Source: Actinomycetes bacterium
Lineage (GTDB): Bacteria; Actinomycetota; Thermoleophilia; BMS3ABIN01
NCBI GenBank assembly: GCA_021791195.1
Contig: JAJYXB010000022.1
Coordinates: forward strand, 80,245 to 144,244
Direction: 5' to 3'
Length of the DNA stretch: 64,000 nt
This document shows, in pieces, positions 1 to 36,595 of this stretch. Within the stretch, counting starts at the first letter, position 1. The number at the start of each line of letters is the position of its first letter. A program made the translations under genes and the position numbers. The notes below the pieces were generated by a model. The model did no database searches. It was not told the origin of the DNA and worked only from the letters and a program-made list of their open reading frames with translations.

Positions 1-3000
1 GGCTGGAGAAATCACAGGCCAAGGAGCGGCGCTTCCACCTGACGCTGCTGGCCCGGAACAATGCCGGCTATCACAACCTCATCCAGATCACTTCCCGGGG
101 CTTCCTGGAAGGCTATTACTACAAGCCGCGGATCGACCTCGATGTTCTGCGCGAGCACGCCGAAGGGATCATCTGCCTTACCGGCTGCCTCAACAGCCGC
201 GTCTGCCACCGGCTCTACAGCGGCGATTACGACGGCGCCGTGCAGGAAGTCCGGGATCTGCAGGAAATATTCGGCGACGAAAATGTCTACATCGAGATCC
301 AGGCGCACGGCCTGCCCGAACAGGAGAAAGTAAATCCGCTGCTGATCAGGCTGGCGGCGGATGTCGGCCGGCCGCTGGTGGCCACCAACGACGTCCATTA
401 CCTCCGGAAGGAAGACGCCGTCAGCCATGACGCCCTGCTCTGCATCCAGACCGGCAGCACGCTGCTGGATGCCGACCGGCTCAAGTTCCAGGGCGAGGAG
501 TTTTACCTCAAAAGCCGCGAGGAGATGGAGGCGGCGCTGCCGCAGGCGCCCGGGGCGATCGTGAGCACCGCCGAGATCGCCGCGCGCTGCAACGTGGAGA
601 TGGAATTTGGCAAGATCTATCTGCCCGTCTACCAATCGCCGGATGGTTTGACCGGCGATGACTATCTGCGGCAGCTGTGCGAGGAAGGATTTGGGCGGCG
701 TTTCGGGCAGCAGCCGGAAGCGGCCGCCGCCGCCCGCGAGCGGCTGGAAACCGAGCTGGCGACGATCAGCGAGATGGGCTTTGCTTCCTACTTCCTGATA
801 GTGTGGGATTTTGTCAAGTACGCCAGGGACAACGACATCGCCGTCGGCCCCGGCCGCGGTTCGGCGGCCGGCAGCATCGTCGCCTTCTGCCTCGGCATCA
901 CCGATGTCGACCCGCTGAAGTACGACCTGCTGTTCGAGCGCTTTCTCAATCCCAGCCGGCGCACGATGCCGGATATCGATATCGATTTCTCGCCGGAAGA
1001 CCGCGAGAAAGTGATCGCGTATGTGGCCGAGCGCTACGGCCGCCAGAACGTGGCCCAGATCATCACCTTCGGTTCCTTTGCCGCCCGCGGCGGCACGCGG
1101 GATGCCGGCCGCGTCCTGGGCGTGCCCTACGGTGCGGTTGACAGGGTCGCCAAACTGATACCCGAAGGGCCCGGCGTCACGTTCGCGGAATGTCTCCGGC
1201 CGGGCCAGGAGCTGCGTGATGCCTATGACGCGGAGGAGCAGACCAAGCAGATCGTCGACCTGGGGATGTTCCTGGAGGGGATGGTGCGCCACGACGGCAT
1301 CCATGCGGCGGCAGTGGTCATCTCCGACCGGCCGCTCACCAACCACCTGCCGCTGCAGCAGAAGGGACGCGACGCCGAGGTCGTCACCCAGTTCGCGATG
1401 GAAGACGTCGAGGCGCTTGGCCTGCTGAAGATGGATTTCCTCGGCCTGCGCAACCTCGATATTATCAAGGCGGCGGTGCGGCTGATCGCCGCCAACCACG
1501 ATGTCCGCATCGACCCCGGCGCTATCCCGCTCGATGACGCCCGGACCTATGAGATGCTCAGCCGCGGGCAGAGCGACGCGGTGTTCCAGTTCGAGAGCGC
1601 GGGGATGAAAGATTCGCTCCGGCTGGTGGCGCCGACGCGGTTCGAGGACCTGGTGGCCATCGTGGCGCTTTACCGGCCCGGGCCGATGGCGCAGATCCCC
1701 GAGTTCGCCCGCAACAAGAAGAATCCCGATTCGATCGTCTACGACGACCCGCGCCTGGAACCGATCCTGGAACCGACGTACGGCGTCGCCATCTATCAGG
1801 AACAGCTGATGGAGATCGCCAAGCAGATCGCCGGCTTCACGCCGGCCGAAGCCGATGACCTGCGCAAGGGCATCGCCAAGAAAAAGCACGAAGTGCTGGC
1901 GAAACTGAAGGACAAGTTCCTTGCCGGCTGCGGCGCCAATGACGTTAGCGGCCAGGTGGCCCGCAAGCTCTGGGGGAACATGGAGGCCGCCGGCGATTAT
2001 TCCTTCAACAAGTCGCACGCGGTCGGCTACGCGCTGATCGCTTACCAGACCGCCTATCTGAAGGCCAACTACCCGCGCGAATACATGGCGGCGACGATCT
2101 CCAGCGTCATGACCACCAAGGACAAGGTGCCCTTCTATGTCAACGCATGTGCGGCGATGGGCATCGAGGTGCTGCCGCCGGATGTCAATGAGAGCGGAAG
2201 TGACTTCACCGTTGTTGATGACAGGATACGTTTTGGTTTGACCGCGGTAAAGAATGTTGGTTCAACGGTGATCGCGGCGATCGTCGCGGCCCGCGAGCAG
2301 GGCGGTCCCTTCAGCTCGATATATGATTTCTGCCGCCGGGTCGATTCCCGGCCCCTGAATAAAAAAGCCCTGGAAAGCCTGATAAAATGCGGCGCCCTGG
2401 ATTCCACCGGCGCCAGCCGCCAGGGCATGCTCAAGGTGATGGGGCAGGCGCTGTCGATGGGGGCGCAGAGCCAGCAGGACAGCGCCCACGGGCAGGCTTC
2501 GATCTTTGACATCGGCGGGGAAGAGAGCTCGCACGAGGCTGCCGATCCGGCGATATCCGCCGATGAATTCGAGCCGGAGATCCTGATGCGGCTGGAGAAG
2601 GAGACTCTCGGGCTGTATGTTTCCAGCCACCCCCTGAGGGACCTGCAGCCCCAGCTGGAAGCCGTCGCGGCGCAGTCGACGGCGGCGCTGAAGGAGGCGC
2701 GTGACCGCGCCAGCGTCACCATCGGCGGCCTGGTAACCACCGTGAAGCGGCTGACCACCAAGAAAGGCGATGTGATGGCGTTTGTCACGGTGGAGGACCT
2801 GGAAGGCAGCGTCGAAGTGGTTGTTTTCAGCGACCTGTTTTCCCGCTGCCGCGAGCTGCTGGTCGAGGACCGCGTGGTGGTCATCCGCGGCAAAGTCGAT
2901 CACAAGGATGAAGGGGACGTGAAGATCGTCGCGGCTGACATCGAGGAGCTGCGGGCGGCGCCGCCGTCTGGCGGCGGCGGGAGCGGCGATGCGGCGCCGG

Positions 3001-3245
3001 ACGGCCGGACCCAGCTGACTCTGCGGCTCGAACTTGCTAATATCAAGCCTGAGCTGCTGGTCAATATGAAGGATATCTGCCGCAGCAATCCCGGCGGCGT
3101 GCCGGTCATCCTGAGCATGCGCACCGACGATGGCGTGCGGAAACTCCAGCTGGGACAGGAATTCAGGGTCGAACCCGGCAGCGATTTCATCAAGGGCATG
3201 AAAAGCCTGCTGGGCGCCGACGGGGTTCAGCTAAGCGACGCCTAG
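1..3245 (+). CDS. dnaE: DNA polymerase III alpha subunit, C-terminal ~1080 aa (N-terminus lies upstream of the window)
   Basis: Frame 3 is open from nt 3; PHP domain motifs (GYYYKPRIDLDVL, HYLRKEDAVSHDALLCIQTG), polymerase core, OB-fold tail; stop at 3245. Confidence 0.95.
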   Translation, partial: LEKSQAKERRFHLTLLARNNAGYHNLIQITSRGFLEGYYYKPRIDLDVLREHAEGIICLTGCLNSRVCHRLYSGDYDGAVQEVRDLQEIFGDENVYIEIQAHGLPEQEKVNPLLIRLAADVGRPLVATNDVHYLRKEDAVSHDALLCIQTGSTLLDADRLKFQGEEFYLKSREEMEAALPQAPGAIVSTAEIAARCNVEMEFGKIYLPVYQSPDGLTGDDYLRQLCEEGFGRRFGQQPEAAAAARERLETELATISEMGFASYFLIVWDFVKYARDNDIAVGPGRGSAAGSIVAFCLGITDVDPLKYDLLFERFLNPSRRTMPDIDIDFSPEDREKVIAYVAERYGRQNVAQIITFGSFAARGGTRDAGRVLGVPYGAVDRVAKLIPEGPGVTFAECLRPGQELRDAYDAEEQTKQIVDLGMFLEGMVRHDGIHAAAVVISDRPLTNHLPLQQKGRDAEVVTQFAMEDVEALGLLKMDFLGLRNLDIIKAAVRLIAANHDVRIDPGAIPLDDARTYEMLSRGQSDAVFQFESAGMKDSLRLVAPTRFEDLVAIVALYRPGPMAQIPEFARNKKNPDSIVYDDPRLEPILEPTYGVAIYQEQLMEIAKQIAGFTPAEADDLRKGIAKKKHEVLAKLKDKFLAGCGANDVSGQVARKLWGNMEAAGDYSFNKSHAVGYALIAYQTAYLKANYPREYMAATISSVMTTKDKVPFYVNACAAMGIEVLPPDVNESGSDFTVVDDRIRFGLTAVKNVGSTVIAAIVAAREQGGPFSSIYDFCRRVDSRPLNKKALESLIKCGALDSTGASRQGMLKVMGQALSMGAQSQQDSAHGQASIFDIGGEESSHEAADPAISADEFEPEILMRLEKETLGLYVSSHPLRDLQPQLEAVAAQSTAALKEARDRASVTIGGLVTTVKRLTTKKGDVMAFVTVEDLEGSVEVVVFSDLFSRCRELLVEDRVVVIRGKVDHKDEGDVKIVAADIEELRAAPPSGGGGSGDAAPDGRTQLTLRLELANIKPELLVNMKDICRSNPGGVPVILSMRTDDGVRKLQLGQEFRVEPGSDFIKGMKSLLGADGVQLSDA

Positions 3246-14954: not shown

Positions 14955-15131
14955 GCAATATCTTCGGGGCGGGGTGGAATTCCCCACCGGCGGTCAAAGC
15001 CCGCGACCCTCGTCAAGAGGTTGATCAGGTGAAATTCCTGGGCCGACAGTCAAAGTCTGGATGGGAGAAGATATAAGCTCGAATGAGCTTGTGACGCCCT
15101 GGGATAGACGCTGCCCGGGGTTTTTTTATTC
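14955..15131 (+). promoter_or_regulatory. FMN riboswitch (RFN element) with intrinsic-terminator expression platform
   Basis: CTTCGGGGCGGGGTGGAATTCCCCACCGGCGGT...GGTGAAATTCCTGGGCCGACAGTCAAAGTCTGGATGGGAGAAG matches the RFN consensus; followed by CCCTGGG-N10-CCCGGGG hairpin and TTTTTTTATT at 15098..15127. Confidence 0.9.
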
Positions 15132-15132
15132 C

Positions 15133-16254
15133 ATGATTTCGGGGACAGACATCAGTTTCATGCAGCGGGCGCTGGACCTGGCCGATCTGGCCAGGGGCAG
15201 GACCAGCCCCAATCCCACCGTGGGCGCCGTTATCGTCAGGGATGATGACGTCATCGGCGAGGGCTATCACCGGCGCGCCGGCGCCGATCATGCCGAAGTG
15301 GCCGCGATCAGGTCGGCGGCGGGAGGCGTCGAAGGGGCCACCATTTACGTCACGCTCGAACCCTGCTGTCATACAGGCCGGACGGGTCCGTGCACGGAAG
15401 CTCTGATCAAGGCCGGCATCGCTCGGGTGCTGATCGCTTCGCTGGACCCGTCGGCGAAGGTGAATGGCAAAGGGCTCAGGCAGCTGCGCGACGCCGGCAT
15501 CGAGGTAGAGGTGCTGGACGGCGCCGTTGCGGCGCGGGCCAGGGCCCAGAACGAGGCTTTCCGCAAGCATGCCGTCACCGGGCTGCCGTTCGTCCTCTTC
15601 AAGAGCGCCATGAGCCTCGACGGCAAGATCGCTACCGCGACAGGTGATTCACGCTGGATCTCGGGCGAGGAAAGCCGCGCCGTGGTGCACGCGCTCCGGG
15701 CCGAGATGGATGCCATCGCCGTGGGCTGCGGCACCGCCGCCATCGATGATCCGATGCTGAACTGCCGGCTGCCGGGCGACTACCTGCAGCCGCTGAGGAT
15801 TGTTTTTGACTCGCAGGCCAATCTGGATCCCCGGAGCAAGCTGGTGCAGACCGCGAACGATTTCCGGACCCTGGTATTTACCGCCGGCAATGCGCCGGAC
15901 GAGCGGGTGGCGGCGCTCGAGCGGGCCGGCGTGGAGGTCAGCCGGACCGGCGGTGAAGGCCGGGTGGACGTGGGCGAGGCCCTCGCGCATCTGGGATCGA
16001 TGGATCCACCGGTGATGAGCGTGCTGCTGGAGGGCGGGCCCACGCTGGCCGCGTCGTTTGTCGAAGCCGGCTTAATCGACAAGGTGATGATGTTCGTCGC
16101 CCCCAAGCTGATCGGCGGCGAGTCGGCCAAGACGCCGGTCGAGGGCCGGGGTTTTCGCCTCGTGGGCGAAGCGGTTCCGCTCAAGCGCCTGTCGCACGTG
16201 TCGATTGGTGAGGATGTGCTGATCACCGCTTACACTTCAGAGGATGAGTGGTGA
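15133..16254 (+). CDS. ribD: bifunctional diaminohydroxyphosphoribosylaminopyrimidine deaminase / 5-amino-6-(5-phosphoribosylamino)uracil reductase
   Basis: Deaminase HAEVAA...PCxxC motif; reductase domain; start placed after the riboswitch terminator (ORF track starts at 15061, inside the riboswitch). Confidence 0.9.
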   Translation: MISGTDISFMQRALDLADLARGRTSPNPTVGAVIVRDDDVIGEGYHRRAGADHAEVAAIRSAAGGVEGATIYVTLEPCCHTGRTGPCTEALIKAGIARVLIASLDPSAKVNGKGLRQLRDAGIEVEVLDGAVAARARAQNEAFRKHAVTGLPFVLFKSAMSLDGKIATATGDSRWISGEESRAVVHALRAEMDAIAVGCGTAAIDDPMLNCRLPGDYLQPLRIVFDSQANLDPRSKLVQTANDFRTLVFTAGNAPDERVAALERAGVEVSRTGGEGRVDVGEALAHLGSMDPPVMSVLLEGGPTLAASFVEAGLIDKVMMFVAPKLIGGESAKTPVEGRGFRLVGEAVPLKRLSHVSIGEDVLITAYTSEDEW

Positions 16255-16343
16255 TGCGGCCCGCGGGCGGCGGCCGCGATCTAATGGAAGACTTTGACTG
16301 TCATGAAAAATGAACGGCACGGTAATTTGAGAGGGAACGAAAT

Positions 16344-16997
16344 ATGTTTACCGGAATAGTCGAAGAACTGGGAAAGCTGGTAAGCCTGGAGATGGGCGCC
16401 GACAGCGGCGTCATCACCATCGAGGCCGATAAGGTGCTGGAGGGCACGCGGCTGGGCGATTCCATCGCCGTCAATGGCGTCTGCCTGACGGCGCGCGCGT
16501 TCGGCAACGGCACTTTTGCCGCCGACGTGATGCCCGAGACGCTTAGAAAGAGCAACCTGGGCAACCTTAAACGTGGCAATCTTGTCAACCTGGAGCGGGC
16601 GATGACGCTCGGCGGGCGCCTGGGCGGCCACCTGATGCTCGGTCACGTGGATGCCACCGGCAAGGTCGTCTCCGTCCGGCCCGAGGGGACGGCGGTCGTC
16701 TACACGATGTTGGCGCCGGAACAGGTGCGGCGTTACATCCTGCCGCAGGGCTCGATCGGCGTCGACGGCATCAGCCTGACCGTCGCCCGGCTCGAAGGCG
16801 ACAAGTTCAGCGTCTCGCTGATCCCGCACACAGTCAGGCTGACGACGCTGGGCAACAACGGCGTCGGTTACGAGGTCAACCTCGAGGCGGATGTCATCGG
16901 CAAGTATGTGGCGCGCATGCTGGAAGGGAATCTGCCCGGGGGGCACGGCGAGGGCGGGCTGACGATCGAGAAACTGGCCGAAGGAGGATTTTTGTAA
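16344..16997 (+). CDS. ribE: riboflavin synthase alpha subunit
   Basis: MFTGIVEELG N-terminus, two lumazine-binding repeats. Confidence 0.9.
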   Translation: MFTGIVEELGKLVSLEMGADSGVITIEADKVLEGTRLGDSIAVNGVCLTARAFGNGTFAADVMPETLRKSNLGNLKRGNLVNLERAMTLGGRLGGHLMLGHVDATGKVVSVRPEGTAVVYTMLAPEQVRRYILPQGSIGVDGISLTVARLEGDKFSVSLIPHTVRLTTLGNNGVGYEVNLEADVIGKYVARMLEGNLPGGHGEGGLTIEKLAEGGFL

Positions 16998-17112
16998 TGA
17001 GCCGGGCGCGAGGATACCGCTCCGAAAGATATCCATCATCGCTTGACGTCCCTAAAGTTTTTTATGCAAGTAACTGATATGAAGTGTCAATTATTCAGAA
17101 GGAAAGGTAGTC

Positions 17113-18393
17113 ATGTCAGATTCAAACCAACAGCAGGAAGTGAAGGAATCGCCGTTCAGCTCCATCGACGAGGCGATCGCCGACATCCAGGCCGGAAAGA
17201 TCATCGTTGTCTGTGACGACGAGGACCGCGAGAACGAGGGCGACCTGACGATGGCGGCGCAGTTCGCCACGCCGGAGGCGATCAACTTCATGGCCACTCA
17301 TGGCCGCGGCCTCATCTGCCTGGCAATGACGCCGGAGAAGTGCACTGATCTGGATCTGCCGCAGATGGTGCAGAAGAACGAAGCTACCTTCAGCACCGCC
17401 TTCACCGTCTCGATCGAGGCGCGTCACGGGGTGACGACCGGCATCTCGGCGGCCGACCGCGCCCACACGATCCAGACGGCGATCAAGCCCGAAGCGCTGC
17501 CCGTGGACCTGGTGCAGCCGGGCCACGTCTTCCCGCTGCGGGCCAAGCCGGGCGGGGTGCTGGAGCGCACCGGTCAGACGGAGGCCTCGGTCGACCTGGC
17601 CAGGCTGGCCGGCCTGGAGCCCGCCGGCGTCATCTGCGAGATCATGAATGAGGACGGCACCATGGCGCGCGTCCCCGACCTGGTCCCCTACTGCAAGAAG
17701 CACAATCTGAAGATGGTCACCGTTGCCGACCTGATCAAGTACCGGCGCAAGACCGAGAAGCTGGTGCGGCGCGCCGCCGAAGCGCGGCTCCCGACCAGAT
17801 TTGGCGATTTCCGCGCCATCGGCTACGAGAGCCTGCTGGACGGCGAGCAGCACGTGGCGCTGGTCAAGGGCGATGTCGAGGGCGCCGAGAACGTGCTCGT
17901 GCGGGTGCACTCCGAGTGTCTCACCGGCGACGTTTTCGGCTCGATGCGCTGCGACTGCGGCGAGCAGCTTTATCATGCGATGCGCATGATCGAGGAGGAG
18001 GGCAAGGGCGTGCTGCTCTATCTCTCCCAGGAAGGCCGCGGCATCGGCATCCTCAACAAGCTCAAGGCCTACGAGCTGCAGGAGCGCGGCCGCGACACCG
18101 TCGAGGCCAACGAGGAGCTTGGCTTCCCGGCCGACCTGCGTGATTATGGCATCGGCGCCCAGATCCTGGTGGACCTGGGGCTGACCTCAATCCGGCAAAT
18201 GACCAACAACCCGAAGAAGATCAAGGGCCTGGAAGGATATGGGCTTAAAATCGTGGAAAGAGTGCCCATCGAGATGCCGCCGCAGTGCGAAAACGTCGCC
18301 TATCTGGCCACCAAGAAGGCCAAGATGGGGCACATCCTCCATCATCAGGATCTCCGTTATGTGGAGGAGGACCAGGAGGAAGGCCAGGTTTAG
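17113..18393 (+). CDS. ribBA: bifunctional 3,4-dihydroxy-2-butanone-4-phosphate synthase / GTP cyclohydrolase II
   Basis: DHBP synthase N-half ([11 protein letters not shown]) and GCHII C-half ([15 protein letters not shown]). Confidence 0.95.
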
Positions 18394-18468
18394 CAGCCGG
18401 GCCTGAACCGGCGGCGGCCGGTGAGCCGCCGCGCCAGACAACGGAACCGAGACAGAAAGGACCAGTTT

Positions 18469-18942
18469 ATGGCCAGTGAGTTCAAGAGTTACGAGGGAAT
18501 GCTGGACGCCAAGGGGCTGAAGTTCGGCCTGGTAGTGGCGCGTTTTAATGAATTCATCTCCACGCGCCTGCTGGACGGCGCGATCGATTGTCTCGTGCGG
18601 CACGGCGCGGGCAAGAGCGCGATCGAAGTGGCCTGGGTCCCCGGCGCCTTCGAGATCCCGCTGGTGGCGGCGAAGATGGCCGAGAGCGGCAAGTACGACG
18701 CCGTCATCTGCCTGGGCGCGGTCATCCGCGGCGGCACGCCGCACTTTGACTATGTCGCCGCAGAGGTGTCAAAGGGGATCGCCAAGGTTTCGCTTGACAG
18801 CAAGTTACCGGTGGCGATGGGTGTGCTTACCACCGACAGCATCGAGCAGGCGGTCGAGCGCGCCGGCACCAAGGCCGGCAACAAGGGCTGGCAGGCGGCG
18901 GCCGGCGCCATCGAGATGGCCAGCCTGGTGAAGAAGCTCTAG
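18469..18942 (+). CDS. ribH: 6,7-dimethyl-8-ribityllumazine synthase
   Basis: [10 protein letters not shown]...VVARFNEFI...; SD AGAAAGGA upstream of the ATG at 18469. Confidence 0.9.
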
Positions 18943-30250: not shown

Positions 30251-30330
30251 GGAACTTTAGGAAAGCAACGTCCCTGGTTTGGGACGCGGTTTTGGAACTT
30301 TAGGAAAGCAACGTCCCCGGTTTGGGACAG
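30251..30330. repeat. two inverted copies of the same repeat (GGAACTTTAGGAAAGCAACGTCCC), each followed by GTCCC-N6-GGGAC palindromes
   Basis: 30251..30274 and 30295..30319 are reverse complements of the 30018/30061 repeats; palindromes CGTCCCTGGTTTGGGACG (30269..30286) and GTCCCCGGTTTGGGAC (30313..30328). Confidence 0.85.
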
Positions 30331-30377
30331 GCCCCGGAGGGGGAAATCAGTCGTGGTGGCGAGTTCTGGAGCGGATC

Positions 30378-33300
30378 ATGGGCGATTGCATGGAGGGGTT
30401 TCCGGAGGCCGGCGAGCGGCTGTTTCGCATACTGGCATTTGACTGGGACGGCACCGCGGTGCCGGATCGCCATGCCGATGCCCGCCGGGTGGCCGCGGTG
30501 CTTCAGCAGCTGCTGAAGCTGGACGTGCTGGTGGCCGTCATCACCGGCACCAATTTCGAGAACATCGACCGGCAGCTTTGCTCCCTGATCCACGGTACCC
30601 ACAAGCGGCGGCTTTACGTATGCGCCAACCGTGGTTCGGAAGTTTTCGGCTTCGACATCGATGGCAATGTCACGCTGCTTTTCAGGCGGGAAGCGACACC
30701 GGACGAGAACAGGCTGCTGGACCGCATCGCCCAGGCGGTCAAAAGTGACATCGAGAGCCTGTCCAGCGTCGGCATCAACATCATCTACGACCGGCTCAAC
30801 CGCCGCAAGGTCGACCTGATCCCCGAATGGCCAGATCCGCCGAAGTCACGCATCGATGAACTGATGGCCAGAACCGAGGCGCGCCTGAAGCAGGGCGGCT
30901 ACAGCGGCGGCATCCACGGCGCCTACGAGCTGACGCTGCATTACGCCCGGCGCTTCGGCCTGAAAAACGCGCGCGTCACCAGCGACGTCAAGCACATCGA
31001 GGTGGGCCTCACCGACAAATCCGACTCGATCCGCTGGGTCATCAGCCAGCTGTGCTACCGGCGCAATATCCCCTTCCGGAACATGCTGGTGGGAGGGGAT
31101 GAGTTCGGTAATGTGGCCGGTTTCGAGGGCAGCGATTCGCACATGATCGTGCCCGAGCTCGGCGGAGATTCCTATATCGTGTCGGTGGGGAAGGAGCCTG
31201 ACGGCGTGCCGCCGGGGGTAACCCACCTGCCCGGCGGGCCCGACTGTTTCATCAGCCTGCTGGAGCGGCAGGTCGCGCTGCATCGGCTGATGCTGCCCAG
31301 CGAGGATGTGACGGCGCTGCTGGTGGAGAACGGCTTCAATCCGCTCCGGGAACGCGAGGTCGAGTCGCTGCTGGCTGTCGGCAACGGTTATCTCGGCACC
31401 CGTGGCTCGCTCGAGGAGCAGGATCCGGCGTCCAGCGCCGCCACGCTGCTGGCCGGCGTTTATGACCGGACGAGCAGGGAATCGATCGAGGAGCTTGTGG
31501 TCGTTCCTGACTGGCTGTATACGCGTATCTACGTCAATAACATCCAGCTGACCGCCGGGCGCCAGAATCTGCTGGAGCACCGGCGGGTGCTGGACATGTC
31601 CAAGGGCATGCTTTTCCGCGAGTGGCGCCACCGGGACCGGGAGAACCGCGTTACCCGCATCCGTTTCATCCGGTTCGCCTCGCTGGCGGATCCGCATCTG
31701 CTGGTGGAGCGGCTGGTGGTGGTTCCGGAGAATTACAGCGGGAAGCTGCGGGTGGAGACCGGGCTCAGGATCTGCGAGGGTTGCCCGCCCGAGCTGACCG
31801 TGACGGCCGCGGCCGGCGCCGAGCCGCCGGAAGATGAAGCGGCCAGGCGGGCGGCAGGGAGCGCGTCAGCCGGCGCGGAGCCGGAAAGCGGCGTCCGTGT
31901 CAGCGCCACCACGGTCCATACCGGCATCGCCCTGGCCCAGCGGCAGCAGAGCCGCCCCGCGGCCGGCTTCATCAACATGCGCCATTCCACTGCTGCCGGC
32001 GGTTTTGGCGCTATCGAGCGCTGGCGCTGGCGGGCGGCGGCGGGACAGCCGGTCACCATCGACAAATACGTGAGCGTCTTCACTTCGCGCGAGAGTACGG
32101 CGCCGGACCGCGAGGCGGCCGCGGCCACGGAGCGGCTGGCCGGGCTGGGCTTCCGGCCGCTTGCCCTGCAGCAGATCGGCGCCTGGCGCGACCGGCTGGC
32201 AACGGCGGCGGTCACCGTGGACGACAATGACAGCCAGCAATGGCTCAACTTCGCCCTTTATCACCTCATCAGCGCCGGGAATCCCCATGACGAGCGCAGC
32301 TCGATCAGCGCCCGCGCGCTTACCGGCTCCATTTACAAGGGACATATATTCTGGGACGCGGAGATGTTTATCCTGCCATTCTTCATCTTCACGCATCCGC
32401 CGACCGCGCGGGCGATGCTGCTGTACCGTTTCCATACGCTGGCGGCCGCCCGCGAGAATGCGCTGCGAAAGGGATATGCGGGCGCGCTGTTTGCCTGGGA
32501 AGCGACCGGCGGCGGTGAAGACATGACTCCCGCCGCCGTCGTCGATCCCCGGGGCGAGATCGTGCCGGTGCTGTCGGGCAAGCTGGAGCATCACATCAGC
32601 GCCGCGGTCGCCTGGGGCGCCTGGTCTTACTGGAATGCCAGCGGCGATGAAGGGTTCCTGGTGGGCGCCGGCGCCGAGCTGCTGATCGAAACGGCGCGCT
32701 TCTGGGCCAGCCGGGTCACCGAGGTCGATGGCAGTTTCCACATCCTCGGAGTCGAGGGCCCCGATGAATATCACGATGAAGGCGTCGATGACAACTATTA
32801 CACCAACGCCATGGCCCGCTGGAATCTGCGGCGGGCGGCGGAAGTGGTAGAGCGGCTGAAGCGTCTGCATCCGGATGAGTGGCAGCTGCTTGCCGCCAAG
32901 CTCGGCTTCGACATCGGCGAGCCCCAGCGGTGGCTGCGCGTGGCCGGCGGCATGTTCATGGGCGCCGCGGACACCGGCTCCGGCAAGAGCGCCTCGGCGG
33001 CCGGCGCGGGCGCCGCGCCGGTGGAGCAGTTTCGCGGCTACTTCGAGCTGGAGGACATCGACGTCTCCGCCTTCGGGTCCCATGTGGGACCGCTGGACGT
33101 TTTGCTCGGTCATGAACGCACGGTCGCCTCGCAGGTCGTCAAGCAGGCCGATGTGGTGATGGCGCTCTACCTGCTGGAAGAGGAGCTCGGCGCGGGCGCC
33201 ATCGAAGCCAGCTTCGATTACTACGAACCGCGAACGGTGCACGGCAGCTCGCTCTCACCCGCCATTCATGGGCTGGTGGCCGCCCGCCTGGGCCGGCTGG

Positions 33301-33725
33301 AAAACGCATGGAGCTATTTCAGCCGCGCCGCCCGCATCGACCTGGCCCACGGCAACGCCGCCGGCGGCATCCACGTCGCCGCGCTCGGCGGCCTGTGGCA
33401 GCAGGTTGTCATGGGCTTTGCCGGGGTCAGGACCAGCAGGGAGGGGGTCTTCGTCTATCCGCACCTGCCGGAGCGGTGGGGGACGATGGCTTTCACGCTG
33501 GCATGGCGCGGGCTGCAGCTCCGCTTCGCGGCCGAGCGCGGCCGCCGGCTGAGACTTGAGCTTGCCGGCGAGGGCGAGGCGATGGTGGGAATAAAAGGTT
33601 TGGAGCTGCAGGCAATGACTGGAGGCCGGAGTTACACCGCGTTCTGGCAGGGTGGCCGCTGGCAGGCCTTCTCGCCGGCAGAGGGCGCCGTAACGGCCGC
33701 CGGCATCCAGGAGGACAAGGCATGA
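30378..33725 (+). CDS. OtsB1-like fusion protein: N-terminal HAD-type trehalose-phosphatase-like domain + glycoside hydrolase family 65 (N-terminal, catalytic, C-terminal domains)
   Basis: FDWDGT HAD motif I; GH65 signatures (HIFWDAEMFILPFF, general-acid region); start moved to the ATG at 30378, downstream of the repeat array (ORF track 30279). Confidence 0.8.
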   Translation: MGDCMEGFPEAGERLFRILAFDWDGTAVPDRHADARRVAAVLQQLLKLDVLVAVITGTNFENIDRQLCSLIHGTHKRRLYVCANRGSEVFGFDIDGNVTLLFRREATPDENRLLDRIAQAVKSDIESLSSVGINIIYDRLNRRKVDLIPEWPDPPKSRIDELMARTEARLKQGGYSGGIHGAYELTLHYARRFGLKNARVTSDVKHIEVGLTDKSDSIRWVISQLCYRRNIPFRNMLVGGDEFGNVAGFEGSDSHMIVPELGGDSYIVSVGKEPDGVPPGVTHLPGGPDCFISLLERQVALHRLMLPSEDVTALLVENGFNPLREREVESLLAVGNGYLGTRGSLEEQDPASSAATLLAGVYDRTSRESIEELVVVPDWLYTRIYVNNIQLTAGRQNLLEHRRVLDMSKGMLFREWRHRDRENRVTRIRFIRFASLADPHLLVERLVVVPENYSGKLRVETGLRICEGCPPELTVTAAAGAEPPEDEAARRAAGSASAGAEPESGVRVSATTVHTGIALAQRQQSRPAAGFINMRHSTAAGGFGAIERWRWRAAAGQPVTIDKYVSVFTSRESTAPDREAAAATERLAGLGFRPLALQQIGAWRDRLATAAVTVDDNDSQQWLNFALYHLISAGNPHDERSSISARALTGSIYKGHIFWDAEMFILPFFIFTHPPTARAMLLYRFHTLAAARENALRKGYAGALFAWEATGGGEDMTPAAVVDPRGEIVPVLSGKLEHHISAAVAWGAWSYWNASGDEGFLVGAGAELLIETARFWASRVTEVDGSFHILGVEGPDEYHDEGVDDNYYTNAMARWNLRRAAEVVERLKRLHPDEWQLLAAKLGFDIGEPQRWLRVAGGMFMGAADTGSGKSASAAGAGAAPVEQFRGYFELEDIDVSAFGSHVGPLDVLLGHERTVASQVVKQADVVMALYLLEEELGAGAIEASFDYYEPRTVHGSSLSPAIHGLVAARLGRLENAWSYFSRAARIDLAHGNAAGGIHVAALGGLWQQVVMGFAGVRTSREGVFVYPHLPERWGTMAFTLAWRGLQLRFAAERGRRLRLELAGEGEAMVGIKGLELQAMTGGRSYTAFWQGGRWQAFSPAEGAVTAAGIQEDKA

Positions 33726-34582
33726 ACACCAACCGGAAGAAACCAGCGGGCAACGGGGCGGCCGTGGTCCTGCCGCTGGACGGCTCGCGCACGGCCGTGC
33801 GCGCTTTCGGCGCCGCCCGTGCGGTCACGCGGATGCTGGGCGCCCGCCTGCACGTGATCTACGTCAGCGAGAAGCCGGTGCCGGCGGCGGAGCTGCCGCG
33901 GCTGCTCCATATCGAGGCCGGAGGCGGCCGCATCCGGTTCCATCAGATTTCCGGCGAGACCGTCAGCGCCATCATCCGCTTTGCTGTCGGAGTGGACGCG
34001 AGCATGATCGTCATGTCCAGCCACGGCAGGACGCACAATACGCGGCAGATGGCCGGCGGCGTGGCCATGCGCCTGATCCAGCACACCGACATCCCGGTGA
34101 TGGTGATCCGGCCGCGCAAACAGGTGCCCGGCGCTGACTGGCGCCCGCGCCGCATGCTGGTGCCTCATGACGGCTCGCCTGTCACCGCCGGCGAAGTGGA
34201 GCAGATATTCAACCTGGCTTGTGCGATGGAGGTGGATATCGACGTGCTGCATGTGGGCATGATCGGCGCCCGGCCGCCGGTGGGGGTGGGGGCCATGGAC
34301 GGCCCGCGCTACCTGGACCGGCCGCATTATGACTGGCCCGGCTGGGCGGACGAGTTCCTGCGCCGGTTTGCCGCGCGCCCCGGTGAATCCAAGGTGCGGC
34401 TGATCTACCAACCCGGTGAGATCGTCGATGCGGCGCTCGATTACGCCGCCCAGAACCGCGACGACGTGATCGCGCTGATTTGGCACGGGATGCTGGGAGG
34501 CAAGCGGGCGGCCAGCGTCAAGGGGATCCTGATGAACGCCGAGGTGCCGGTGCTGCTGAAGCGGATCCGCGGCGGGACTTAG
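33722..34582 (+). CDS. universal stress protein (tandem UspA domains)
   Basis: Two Usp-like halves (LHVIYV..., VLHV...PVLL); start overlaps the stop of the preceding gene. Confidence 0.85.
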   Translation: MNTNRKKPAGNGAAVVLPLDGSRTAVRAFGAARAVTRMLGARLHVIYVSEKPVPAAELPRLLHIEAGGGRIRFHQISGETVSAIIRFAVGVDASMIVMSSHGRTHNTRQMAGGVAMRLIQHTDIPVMVIRPRKQVPGADWRPRRMLVPHDGSPVTAGEVEQIFNLACAMEVDIDVLHVGMIGARPPVGVGAMDGPRYLDRPHYDWPGWADEFLRRFAARPGESKVRLIYQPGEIVDAALDYAAQNRDDVIALIWHGMLGGKRAASVKGILMNAEVPVLLKRIRGGT

Positions 34583-34583
34583 G

Positions 34584-34913
34584 TCAGGAGGCCTTGCGCG
34601 CGCCCATGCGTTCGAATTCGACCAGCATGCGGCTGTAGGGTATCTCCCAGATATTGAGCAGCTTCTCGCCGATCATGAGCATGCCGGGTTCGAGCCGCCC
34701 TTCGGTCACCCGCTGGTAGACCTCCGGATACTCCTTGAGCTCCGGCGAATCGAAATCGACATACCTGAGCTTGGCGGTGCCGCCGAAATCCTCCATCAGC
34801 TGGCGGTTGATCGTTTCGGTGATCTCTTCCAGAGACCAGCTGGGGCCTCAGCCGCCAGAACAGGAGTCCAGATAGCGCGACCCGAAGACCGGGATTATTG
34901 ATTCATAAGTCAC
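34584..34913 (-). CDS. candidate selenoprotein: YuzD/DUF1462-like thioredoxin-fold protein with an in-frame UGA (Sec) codon at 34848..34850
   Basis: GGAGG SD, 8-nt spacer, GTG at 34913; translation VTYESIIPVFGSRYLDSCSGG-U-GPSWSLEEITETINRQLMEDFGG... continues in frame into the 70-aa ORF of the track; hairpin GGUCUCU-GGA-AGAGAUC (34821..34837) begins 10 nt after the UGA. Confidence 0.5.
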
Positions 34914-35027
34914 GGAAATTACCTCCTCAGATTCCCTAAGTGCTCATAAGTTTCGGTGAGCGGCCAACGATTCTTTAGACATCCGCGTCCGCTAAAAGTT
35001 TCAGAAGCGTTCAGACCCTCCGGGATT

Positions 35028-36059
35028 TTACAACCGCCGGAGCGTTTTCGCCAGCCGCCAGCCGTCGGCGCCTGTCACTTCCAGCGCCTGCTCCTCGCCA
35101 CTCTCTTCGCCGCGGCGGCGCCAGCCGACCATGATCTTCTCCTGCTCGCGCGCCTGCCCGTAGCGGGCGGTGAGCGCGGCCGCTTCGGCAAGCGCGGCGT
35201 CGTCGGCGTCCCCCTTGATGACGGCAGTGGGCCCCATCGCCGACAGCGCGCTCATGAGGACGTCACCGGGCTGCGCCAGGGCCTCCAGCCTCCTGGTCTC
35301 GTCCTCGTTGCGCGGGATGATGATCTTGCGGCCGCTGGATGAGATGAACAGCCGGCCCAGCTTCAGGGACTGGATGTCGGCCAGCGGCGGCTCGGGATCC
35401 TCGTCCAGCAGCAGCCGCAGCCGGGCGGCGAAGTTGCGGTCGCAGAGCAGGCAGCCGCCGGCGGGGCAAGGGTAGTCGTTCACGCCCAGCTCGGCCGCCA
35501 GCTGGATCTGGGGCTTGCGCGAGCGCCCTTCGATCGCCATCATCCGTTCGCGGTCCACCCAGCCTTCGCGCTCGGGCAGGCTGGGTTCGAACAGGTGTGC
35601 CGACAGTGGCCTGACGATCAGATCCTCCAGCCCGGATTCGCGCTCGATGGTGCGCATGGCGTCCGGGCGCTGCGACATCGGCCGTTCGCCCCAGACCTCG
35701 CCGGTGACGACGAAGTCAGCGCCGCTCTGCTGCATGTAGGCGCGCGCCCGCCTGAGCATGCTGATGCGGCAGTCGAGGCAGGGGTTGATGCCGCGGCCGA
35801 ATCCGTGGCGGGCATCCCTGATCGCCGCCAAAATCTCCCGGGTGGCGTTGAGCACCTTCAGCGGGATGCCGTATTCCTCGGCGGCCTTGCGCGCCTCGGA
35901 CTTGCAGCTGCTCTTGGCCGTGCAGGTGCAGAAGGCGGTAACGAAGTTGACCGCCTCCAGCCCGATGCCCTGGTCGAGCATCATCTTCACTGCCAGGCGG
36001 CTGTCCAGCCCGCCGGAGAGCAGGATGATCGCCTTGCGCTTTTTCTTTTCCATGGTCAT
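35028..36059 (-). CDS. PP-loop superfamily ATPase, Cys-rich (tRNA thiolation / sulfur-transferase type, TtuA/MnmA-like)
   Basis: N-terminal AIILLSGGLDSRLA PP-loop; CTC, NPCLDC and CPAGGCLLC cysteine clusters. Confidence 0.6.
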   Translation of the reverse strand: MTMEKKKRKAIILLSGGLDSRLAVKMMLDQGIGLEAVNFVTAFCTCTAKSSCKSEARKAAEEYGIPLKVLNATREILAAIRDARHGFGRGINPCLDCRISMLRRARAYMQQSGADFVVTGEVWGERPMSQRPDAMRTIERESGLEDLIVRPLSAHLFEPSLPEREGWVDRERMMAIEGRSRKPQIQLAAELGVNDYPCPAGGCLLCDRNFAARLRLLLDEDPEPPLADIQSLKLGRLFISSSGRKIIIPRNEDETRRLEALAQPGDVLMSALSAMGPTAVIKGDADDAALAEAAALTARYGQAREQEKIMVGWRRRGEESGEEQALEVTGADGWRLAKTLRRL

Positions 36060-36082: not shown

Positions 36083-36595
36083 TTAAAAATCCCTGTTAGC
36101 CGGCAGCTCCCGGTCCGGCCGCCCGCGCCGGGCGAATTCCTCGTCGCTCAGCACCTCGATTCCGGCGCGCTGGAAGAGTGCGGCGGTGACGCCATCCCCC
36201 CGGCGCCGGGCGCCGCTGAAACTGCCGTCATAGATCTCGCCGCGGCCGCATGACGGACTTCTCGCTTTCAGGATGGCCTGGCGGCAGCCGTGCCGCTGCG
36301 CGATTTCCAGCGCCCGTCGCGCTCCTTCCAGAAAGCGCTCCGTGAGATCACGGCCGCTTTTGGAAACCACGCTCGCCTTGCCGTCCAGCACATCGGCGCC
36401 GTCACCGCCCTCGATCTCCGCCGTTTCCCTTGGGGTGCGCATGCCGGAGAGCTGTTCGGGGCAGACGGGGATCGCCCGCCCGTCCTCCACCAGCCTTCTG
36501 ACTGGCTCCGACAGCCGGGCGCGGCCGTCATGACTGCAGGGCATCCCGGCCGTGCAGCCGCTGACGATCATCTTTCCGGAAAGGAGCTGGCTCAT
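36083..36595 (-). CDS. DUF523 family protein (TudS-like [4Fe-4S] thionucleobase desulfidase family)
   Basis: MIVSGCTAGMPCSHDG N-terminus matches the DUF523 ILVSACLLGxxCRYDG signature; conserved Cys ligands (CPEQL, SPSCG). Confidence 0.75.
   Translation of the reverse strand: MSQLLSGKMIVSGCTAGMPCSHDGRARLSEPVRRLVEDGRAIPVCPEQLSGMRTPRETAEIEGGDGADVLDGKASVVSKSGRDLTERFLEGARRALEIAQRHGCRQAILKARSPSCGRGEIYDGSFSGARRRGDGVTAALFQRAGIEVLSDEEFARRGRPDRELPANRDF

Follow-up and report, generated by a model that had tools for sequence, protein, structure and literature searches.

A putative selenoprotein family of Thermoleophilia with a C-x3-U motif and a short SECIS-like hairpin

We analyzed a 64,000-nucleotide stretch of contig JAJYXB010000022.1 from an Actinomycetes bacterium of the class Thermoleophilia (hereafter the window) and focused attention on a gene at positions 34913–34584 of its minus strand. 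Our analysis indicates, with a probability of about 0.86, that this gene encodes a 109-residue cytoplasmic thioredoxin-fold protein with selenocysteine (Sec) at an in-frame UGA. According to the mechanism that we propose, a hairpin in the coding region downstream of the UGA would recruit SelB carrying Sec-tRNA(Sec), and Sec would be inserted as residue 22 in place of termination.

The coding sequence (34584..34913, minus strand; 109 codons plus the stop) begins with a GTG at 34913–34911, passes a single in-frame TGA at 34850–34848 and an ATG at 34796, and ends with a TGA at 34586–34584. It reads VTYESIIPVFGSRYLDSCSGG*GPSW...ARKAS, with Cys18 and the proposed Sec22 separated by three residues; 21 codons precede the in-frame TGA, and 17 more lie between it and the ATG. 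A Shine-Dalgarno sequence, GGAGG (34922..34926, minus strand), was read from the sequence with an 8-nucleotide (nt) spacer to the GTG, and GAGGAGG is conserved in a related locus (L010). The first-pass annotation of this DNA had described the Shine-Dalgarno sequence, GTG, in-frame TGA, hairpin, and stop from the letters alone, and all of them are present on the minus strand. The sole open reading frame (ORF) listed at the locus is headed by the ATG at 34796 (34584..34796, minus strand) and encodes 70 residues that correspond to the C-terminal two thirds of the product; it appears in public records as a hypothetical protein (e.g. MCL4309584.1). In GC-rich DNA in-frame TGA codons are common. The full-length reading is supported, beyond its translation, by conservation of the frame in relatives on both sides of the TGA and by a full-length homolog, P0002, that has Cys at the TGA position.

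When the product, with Sec replaced by Cys (U->C), was searched by word index against 5.8 billion proteins, four clusters were returned: that of the annotated 70-residue fragment ("hypothetical protein [Thermoleophilia bacterium]"), which occurs on 18 contigs; two further clusters of 70-residue fragments with 90 and 87% identity; and P0002 (112 residues, 63% identity). Exhaustive phmmer comparison of P0002 with 1.84 billion cluster representatives contributed only a few further true relatives, nearly all of which had been called as C-terminal fragments of 45–90 residues; three of its matches (P0009, P0014, and P0015) were discarded as repeat-driven false positives. In two relatives (L013 and L014) the called GTG "start" lies directly 3' of the in-frame TGA, and ...IPVFGSRFQESCSSG precedes that TGA. 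Another, on a low-GC sediment contig that is probably from a different lineage (L012, 94–432), is recorded as a 112-residue protein (P0008) with Trp exactly at the TGA of the DNA; evidently, the gene caller had applied a code that reads TGA as Trp. The motif in this member is C-x4-U.

Scanning one genome per GTDB species for the sequence pattern yielded eight loci, all from Thermoleophilia, Gaiellales, or "Actinomycetes" metagenome-assembled genomes (MAGs), and a scan of JGI metagenome contigs yielded ten more. All of these loci carry TGA at the same column, within the near-invariant FGSRYLDSC(S/A/T)(G/S)G-U-GPSWSLEEIT. The in-frame UGA of the window (34848..34850, minus strand), the proposed Sec22 codon in the motif D-S-C-S-G-G-U-G-P-S-W, is matched by TGA in 14 of 14 Sec-lineage sequences and in 10 of 10 metagenome loci, and the TGA is kept in all ~22 distinct Sec-form sequences (8 species-representative genomes, 10 metagenome contigs, and several other assemblies). 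Members occur almost exclusively in Thermoleophilia/Gaiellales-type MAGs, and the family is essentially Sec-only.

The segment before the annotated start is conserved as protein. Among 14 sequences, the residues I-P-V-F-G-S-R-Y-L-D-S-C-S-G-G preceding the TGA are retained with 2–5 synonymous codons per column. Over the 39 codons that run from the start up to the "ATG", the window and L010 differ by seven synonymous and one non-synonymous change and by an in-frame codon indel; the lone non-synonymous change is that of the ATG, for which L010 has GTG. Because conserved residues upstream of the TGA vary synonymously, the N-terminal extension must be translated and under purifying selection. The first-pass annotation had held the long form to be the real product, and the relatives bear this out: the extension is conserved as protein in every one of them, with many synonymous changes and the in-frame codon indel. 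ATG 34796 is not a conserved start, being also replaced by GAT (Asp) in the Cys form (L009). Translation begins at the GTG behind the GGAGG Shine-Dalgarno sequence.

The recoding of UGA must be local and context-dependent rather than a genome-wide reassignment, because TGA serves as a normal stop in the neighboring genes (8 of the 17 called, with no internal stops) and as the stop of the family gene itself (15 of 30 loci). The terminal UGA of the window gene lies 87 codons past the Sec22 UGA, and no comparable hairpin follows it.

We then compared the TGA column with the Cys form. P0002, encoded at L009, has DSCSGGCGRRWSLEE opposite DSCSGG-TGA-GPSWSLEE of the window, so that DSCSGGCG aligns with DSCSGG-TGA-G; its Cys codon is TGT, and TGT also stands at the TGA column in P0137 (L037). 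This column carries TGA in the Sec forms and TGT in the Cys paralog, and the earlier proposal that the UGA occupies the place of an expected redox Cys agrees with the full-length homolog. The Cys gene is one of a tandem pair of paralogs (Cys copy at 575–913 and Sec copy at 1117–1257 in L009; 1593–1931 and ~2130–2480 in L037). In L009, and more fully in L037, the gene order is a PP-loop ATPase, the Cys copy, a terminator-like hairpin, and a full-length Sec copy, so the sole organism with the Cys form also keeps the TGA form beside it. This Sec copy, which carries the canonical hairpin, has the sequence ...DSCASGG-U-GPSWSLEEIT...RKAS; in L037 its motif is C-x4-U. It is 80% identical to Sec orthologs elsewhere, whereas the Cys copy is only 58–64% identical to anything. 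Because of this difference, Sec is, on the sequence comparison, the conserved state and the Cys gene a divergent duplicate.

The candidate selenocysteine insertion sequence (SECIS) is the hairpin UGGUCUCU-GGA-AGAGAUCA (34820..34838, minus strand), which spans 10–28 nt downstream of the UGA at 34850–34848, the interval expected of a bacterial SECIS. It has an 8-bp stem, a 3-nt GGA loop, a UGA-to-loop distance of 17 nt, and a folding energy of -8.1 kcal/mol. The bacterial SECIS (bSECIS) model specifies an apical loop of 3–9 nt with G in its first two positions, an upper stem of 4–16 bp, 16–37 nt from UGA to loop, and a minimum free energy of at most -7.5 kcal/mol (PMC13188914). The window hairpin lies within all four bSECIS criteria of that source, and the fit that the first-pass annotation had proposed holds by a narrow margin.

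The hairpin codons are nearly fixed even at synonymous sites, and 19 of 22 distinct Sec segments share the same hairpin sequence. Across 11 non-redundant Sec lineages, the mean pairwise synonymous difference was 0.064 in the six hairpin codons (S-S-L-E-E-I) and 0.575 in 47 other conserved degenerate columns (permutation p < 1e-5), and the hairpin codons form the run of lowest synonymous diversity in the gene. For the same amino acids (Ser, Leu, and Glu) elsewhere in the gene, codons vary freely. Of the hairpin alignment cells, 98% are paired, with two one-sided compatible changes. In the Cys form the hairpin codons have drifted (UCC CUC GAA GAG GUC) and the stem is weakened. The hairpin is under RNA-level selection, exactly where SelB would bind. 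Like the elements described by the bSECISearch model and those of the Escherichia coli fdhF type, it is a stem-loop directly after the UGA, inside the coding region, with a small apical loop starting with GG; unlike them, it is very short, is nearly invariant in its family, and matches no curated RNA model. It also lacks a bulged U, in contrast to the fdhF element.

An AlphaFold2 model of the family (target P0002, 12 sequences) had a mean predicted local distance difference test score (pLDDT) of 84.5, a predicted TM-score (pTM) of 0.73, and the topology b-a-b-a-b-b-a: beta1 at residues 4–10, alpha1 at 27–42, beta2 at 46–52, helices at 56–69, beta3 at 78–81, beta4 at 84–87, and alpha3 at 93–102. 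Pro76, which is nearly invariant, stands before beta3, where thioredoxins have the cis-Pro. A Foldseek search against the PDB returned thioredoxin-fold proteins only, all of them weak matches (best E 0.03, TM ~0.4). The predicted model is that of a minimal thioredoxin fold with Cys18-x3-Sec22 in the beta1-alpha1 loop, the place of CxxC in thioredoxins. A thioredoxin-like layout had been proposed for this protein at the first pass, and both the position of the motif in the model and the Foldseek matches favor it. In most of the family the C terminus is a conserved basic tail, (R/K)(K/R/Q)AS-COOH (34587–34598 in the window), which is disordered in the model and could serve for recognition or docking.

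The sequence of the protein is not that of a known family. Scanning the U->C protein with the Pfam and NCBIfam models gave no match at E <= 10, and release 20 of NCBIfam carries curated models for most recently defined selenoprotein families. The first-pass annotation had likened the product to the YuzD/DUF1462 family (PF07315). That likeness, which would point to the nearest solved fold, may hold at the level of the fold; membership does not, as neither the Pfam scan nor a sequence-profile search of the PDB found it, the latter giving spurious leucine-rich-repeat matches only and missing 1xg8 (Staphylococcus aureus SA0798), whose sequence we confirmed as PF07315/DUF1462 (E 5.6e-38). Direct alignment with hhalign against 1xg8 gave a probability of 1%, at which a sequence relationship to PF07315/YuzD is not detectable, and we rejected the assignment. 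The motif differs as well, being C-x3/4-U-G in a Gly-rich loop and not CxxC after beta1, and DUF1462 is absent from the listed selenoprotein families. ArsD (PF06953; 3ktb and 3kgk) was likewise rejected as a family assignment: there was no Pfam match, and hhalign gave 0.9% with the motif region unaligned. The protein is most aptly placed as a sequence family of its own, and a new one, within the YuzD/ArsD-like corner of the thioredoxin fold.

Among bacterial selenoproteins, the closest resemblance is to those of the thioredoxin fold (Sec-Trx, Sec-Grx, SelW-like, and Trx-like Sec.1/Sec.2; Table 1 of PMC13188914). These are likewise small and of redox type, pair Sec with a Cys at the redox position, combine a UGA with an in-frame stem-loop, and are routinely misannotated as truncated ORFs. 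The listed families have CxxU, UxxC, CxU, or UxC motifs, whereas the family described here has C-x3-U, or C-x4-U in two members (L012 and the L037 Sec copy), and no Pfam or NCBIfam model of theirs matched the protein. Unlike them, it is almost exclusively Sec-containing and is confined to one actinobacterial class.

These features suggest a role, about which we are evenly divided. Sec22 and Cys18 would lie in the glycine-rich S-C-S-G-G-U-G-P-S loop between beta1 and alpha1, with Pro76 opposite in the cis-Pro position, and by analogy with other thioredoxin-fold selenoproteins the pair may cycle between the selenol/thiol and selenenylsulfide forms, which would make the product a small redox or chalcogen-relay protein. 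A serious alternative, which is compatible with Sec and which we consider considerably less probable than not, is that the flexible loop has an ArsD-like ligand-binding role, the protein being a carrier of soft metals, metalloids, or selenium and the Cys18/Sec22 loop its ligand arm. By eye, the ArsD loop C-S-T-G-V-C-G is similar to C-S-(K)-G-G-U-G; the motif is placed in a low-confidence, glycine-rich loop and not at a rigid helix N terminus, and its spacing is x3–x4 instead of the canonical x2. Against such a carrier stand the hhalign result and the lack of a PF06953 match given above, as well as the conserved neighborhood, which contains no ars, mer, or metal-transport genes. ArsD itself, an arsenic metallochaperone, has a Cys12-Cys13-Cys18 triad, whereas the protein described here has one Cys and the Sec, no Cys-Cys pair, and no ars context.

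We next considered whether the UGA might be decoded by something other than Sec. A near-cognate or suppressor tRNA could decode it as Trp, Cys, Arg, or Gly, and the hairpin would then stimulate read-through. Such an explanation would account for a hairpin that is short and only narrowly within the bSECIS thresholds, and it would do without a Sec machinery, none of which was found in the window or in the 467 kb of fetched DNA. We consider it improbable: conserved stimulated read-through of this kind is not known as an established bacterial mechanism, the codon aligns with the Cys of the paralog in a Cys-x3 motif at the thioredoxin redox position, which is the classical Sec/Cys signature, and the hairpin agrees with the SelB-binding consensus in where it lies, in the size of its loop, and in the G-G that the loop contains. 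In addition, Sec decoding is documented in related Actinobacteria; Rubrobacter xylanophilus, of a neighboring actinobacterial class, has five selenoproteins and a tRNA-Sec (PMC1794560, PMC5330540).

Several observations weigh against a Sec-containing product and its proposed role. The bSECIS thresholds are barely cleared: the energy is -8.1 kcal/mol for a limit of -7.5, the spacing 17 nt for a minimum of 16, and the loop only 3 nt long. In two members the core stem falls below the energy threshold (-5.0 kcal/mol in L012 and -4.5 in L016). The fold of the single sequence is unexceptional, the 71-nt region giving -25.7 kcal/mol (z = -1.44) with 16 of 200 shuffles as good. Covariation is thin because the hairpin is so invariant, and it amounts to one compensatory event only (G-C to A-U in L012). 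No Rfam family matched the region, either at the gathering threshold or at E <= 10. In the model, the C-S-G-G-C loop (residues 17–22) is the only low-confidence segment, with pLDDT below 50, and function is inferred from fold and motif only. ARAGORN found no tRNA-Sec in the window and 14 loci, motif scans of the window and the fetched loci found no SelA, SelB, or SelD, and tblastn with the E. coli SelA, SelB, and SelD proteins gave no match in 467 kb of fetched related DNA. This absence of the Sec machinery from the window and the 467 kb shows only that the genes are not nearby. A literature search for Sec use in Thermoleophilia or Conexibacter returned nothing useful, and the published support for the Sec trait covers the neighboring class only (PMC1794560, PMC5330540). 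Because of the comparative evidence, the sequences nonetheless lead us to predict that the Sec machinery is present in these genomes.

If instead the TGA were a true stop, the product would be the annotated 70-residue protein from ATG 34796, perhaps with a separate 21-residue upstream peptide. Every public record annotates the gene in this way, and both the window-type sequences and L010 offer an ATG or GTG there. However, protein-level conservation with synonymous change extends through the 17 codons that separate the TGA from the ATG, and the start is not conserved, with Asp in its place in L009 and the starts chosen by gene callers scattered widely among relatives (products of 45, 62, 65, 70, and 90 residues). 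The first 38 residues form beta1 and most of alpha1 in the predicted model, so that a 70-residue product would be without them, and the Cys paralog reads straight through. These points make a true stop very improbable. A recent mutation of a Cys codon to TGA in a pseudogene, TGA being one base from both TGT and TGC, is effectively refuted by the comparative data, as the TGA is common to lineages with only 37–70% protein identity, purifying selection persists on both sides of the codon, and it is the Sec copy that is conserved (80% to orthologs) and the Cys copy that is divergent.

Directly upstream of the selenoprotein gene, on the same strand, lies a gene for a ThiI-like (ThiI/MnmA-type) PP-loop ATPase with a C-terminal NFACT-R_2 RNA-binding domain (35028..36059, minus strand; PF18297, 1.7e-17; PF02568, 3.4e-10; PF03054, 2.2e-6). 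It occupies this position in 18 of the 18 loci with enough DNA, including both contigs with the Cys paralog. That this ATPase is the client of the selenoprotein is nevertheless unlikely. The adjacency sits within a class-wide synteny block in which the flanking YkuD and M50-protease genes are conserved too; in none of three loci sampled from other phyla (Nitrospirae, Deltaproteobacteria, and another lineage) was a relative of the small protein found near the ATPase homolog; and the selenoprotein gene has a motif of its own upstream, which suggests its own control region and separate transcription. The ATPase family is also very broad. For these reasons we regard coupling to the ATPase as possible but unsupported. 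A more specific scheme, in which a Sec-obligate, lineage-restricted chalcogen relay would use its flexible C-x3-U arm to deliver or resolve sulfur or selenium for the PP-loop/NFACT-R_2 ATPase under its own, possibly stress-responsive promoter, is more doubtful still; if true, it would amount to a selenoprotein-dependent route of RNA thiolation or selenation.

Outside the class, two ATPase loci were of interest in their own right. In a Nitrospirae contig (L033, 5000–5882), 880 nt without called genes lie right after the PP-loop/NFACT-R_2 gene, with no relative of the selenoprotein family inside. In a Deltaproteobacteria MAG (L034, 72–5666), the PP-loop/NFACT-R_2 gene stands amid genes for HcyBio, NIL-ferredoxin, MnmA, QueC-like PP-loop, and FtrD-like proteins, a sulfur-related cluster that fits a sulfur-transfer role of the ATPase family. 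Two genes upstream of the selenoprotein gene in the window is a gene for a DUF523/TudS 2-thiouracil desulfurase (36083–36595, minus strand; PF04463, E 3.4e-40) without an in-frame TGA, which is present at the locus only in the window-type, L010, and L016 lineages. A 2026 review lists DUF523 as a family with Sec-containing members, with the motif SxSUG.

The intergenic motif upstream of the selenoprotein gene is bipartite, TGAAACTTTT-N-GTCTAAAG (34973..35003, minus strand), and is conserved in ~18 lineages as TGAA(A/T)C(C/T)TTT, a gap of ~13–17 nt, and (A/G)TCTAA(G/A)G. It occurs only once per locus and has been duplicated with the gene in the tandem paralogs, where it precedes both copies in L037 (~1470–1500 and 2007–2035); the L010 copy is at 2979–3006. 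The motif may serve this gene as a promoter or operator of its own. It differs from the sigma-70 consensus, and a scan for sigma-70 promoters and terminators around the gene found nothing. By eye, it resembles promoters of the extracytoplasmic function (ECF) type (GAAC-N16-TCTAA).

The family is apparently undescribed. A 2026 inventory of 119 prokaryotic selenoprotein families contains no thioredoxin-like family with C-x3-U that lacks a domain model, and neither DUF1462 nor ArsD appears in it; a prior listing as an unvalidated candidate in a survey of groundwater MAGs is possible. Public records hold the truncated product only (e.g. MCL4309584.1 and MDO8736797.1), and the full-length sequence is not on record. 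The family would thus be an addition to the ~119 prokaryotic selenoprotein families, and no Pfam, NCBIfam, or Rfam model covers it. The annotation also needs correction, since every public record is a fragment without the catalytic loop and one is mistranslated with Trp at the Sec position. Near-total dependence on Sec, combined with a C-x3/4-U motif in a glycine-rich loop, makes the family a good test case for why, in some proteins, Cys cannot replace Sec. The nearly invariant 19-nt hairpin is among the smallest natural SECIS candidates and could be useful as a compact SECIS module. A further prediction is that subsurface and groundwater Thermoleophilia decode Sec.

Other features of the window were noted in passing. 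A convergent gene for a tandem universal stress protein (Usp; 33722–34582, plus strand) ends one base short of the stop codon of the selenoprotein gene, and no terminator-like structure was found for either of the two genes. A gene for a GH65 glycoside phosphorylase-type protein of 1148 residues (30279–33725, plus strand) has an N-terminal extension in which a HAD-like DxDGT motif (FDWDGT) was recognized by eye. The Usp and GH65 genes are inserted at the locus in some lineages only. At 14956–15076 on the plus strand, an FMN riboswitch (RF00050, 117.8 bits) precedes ORFs at 15061–18942; solely from their position, we take these for a riboflavin biosynthesis operon.

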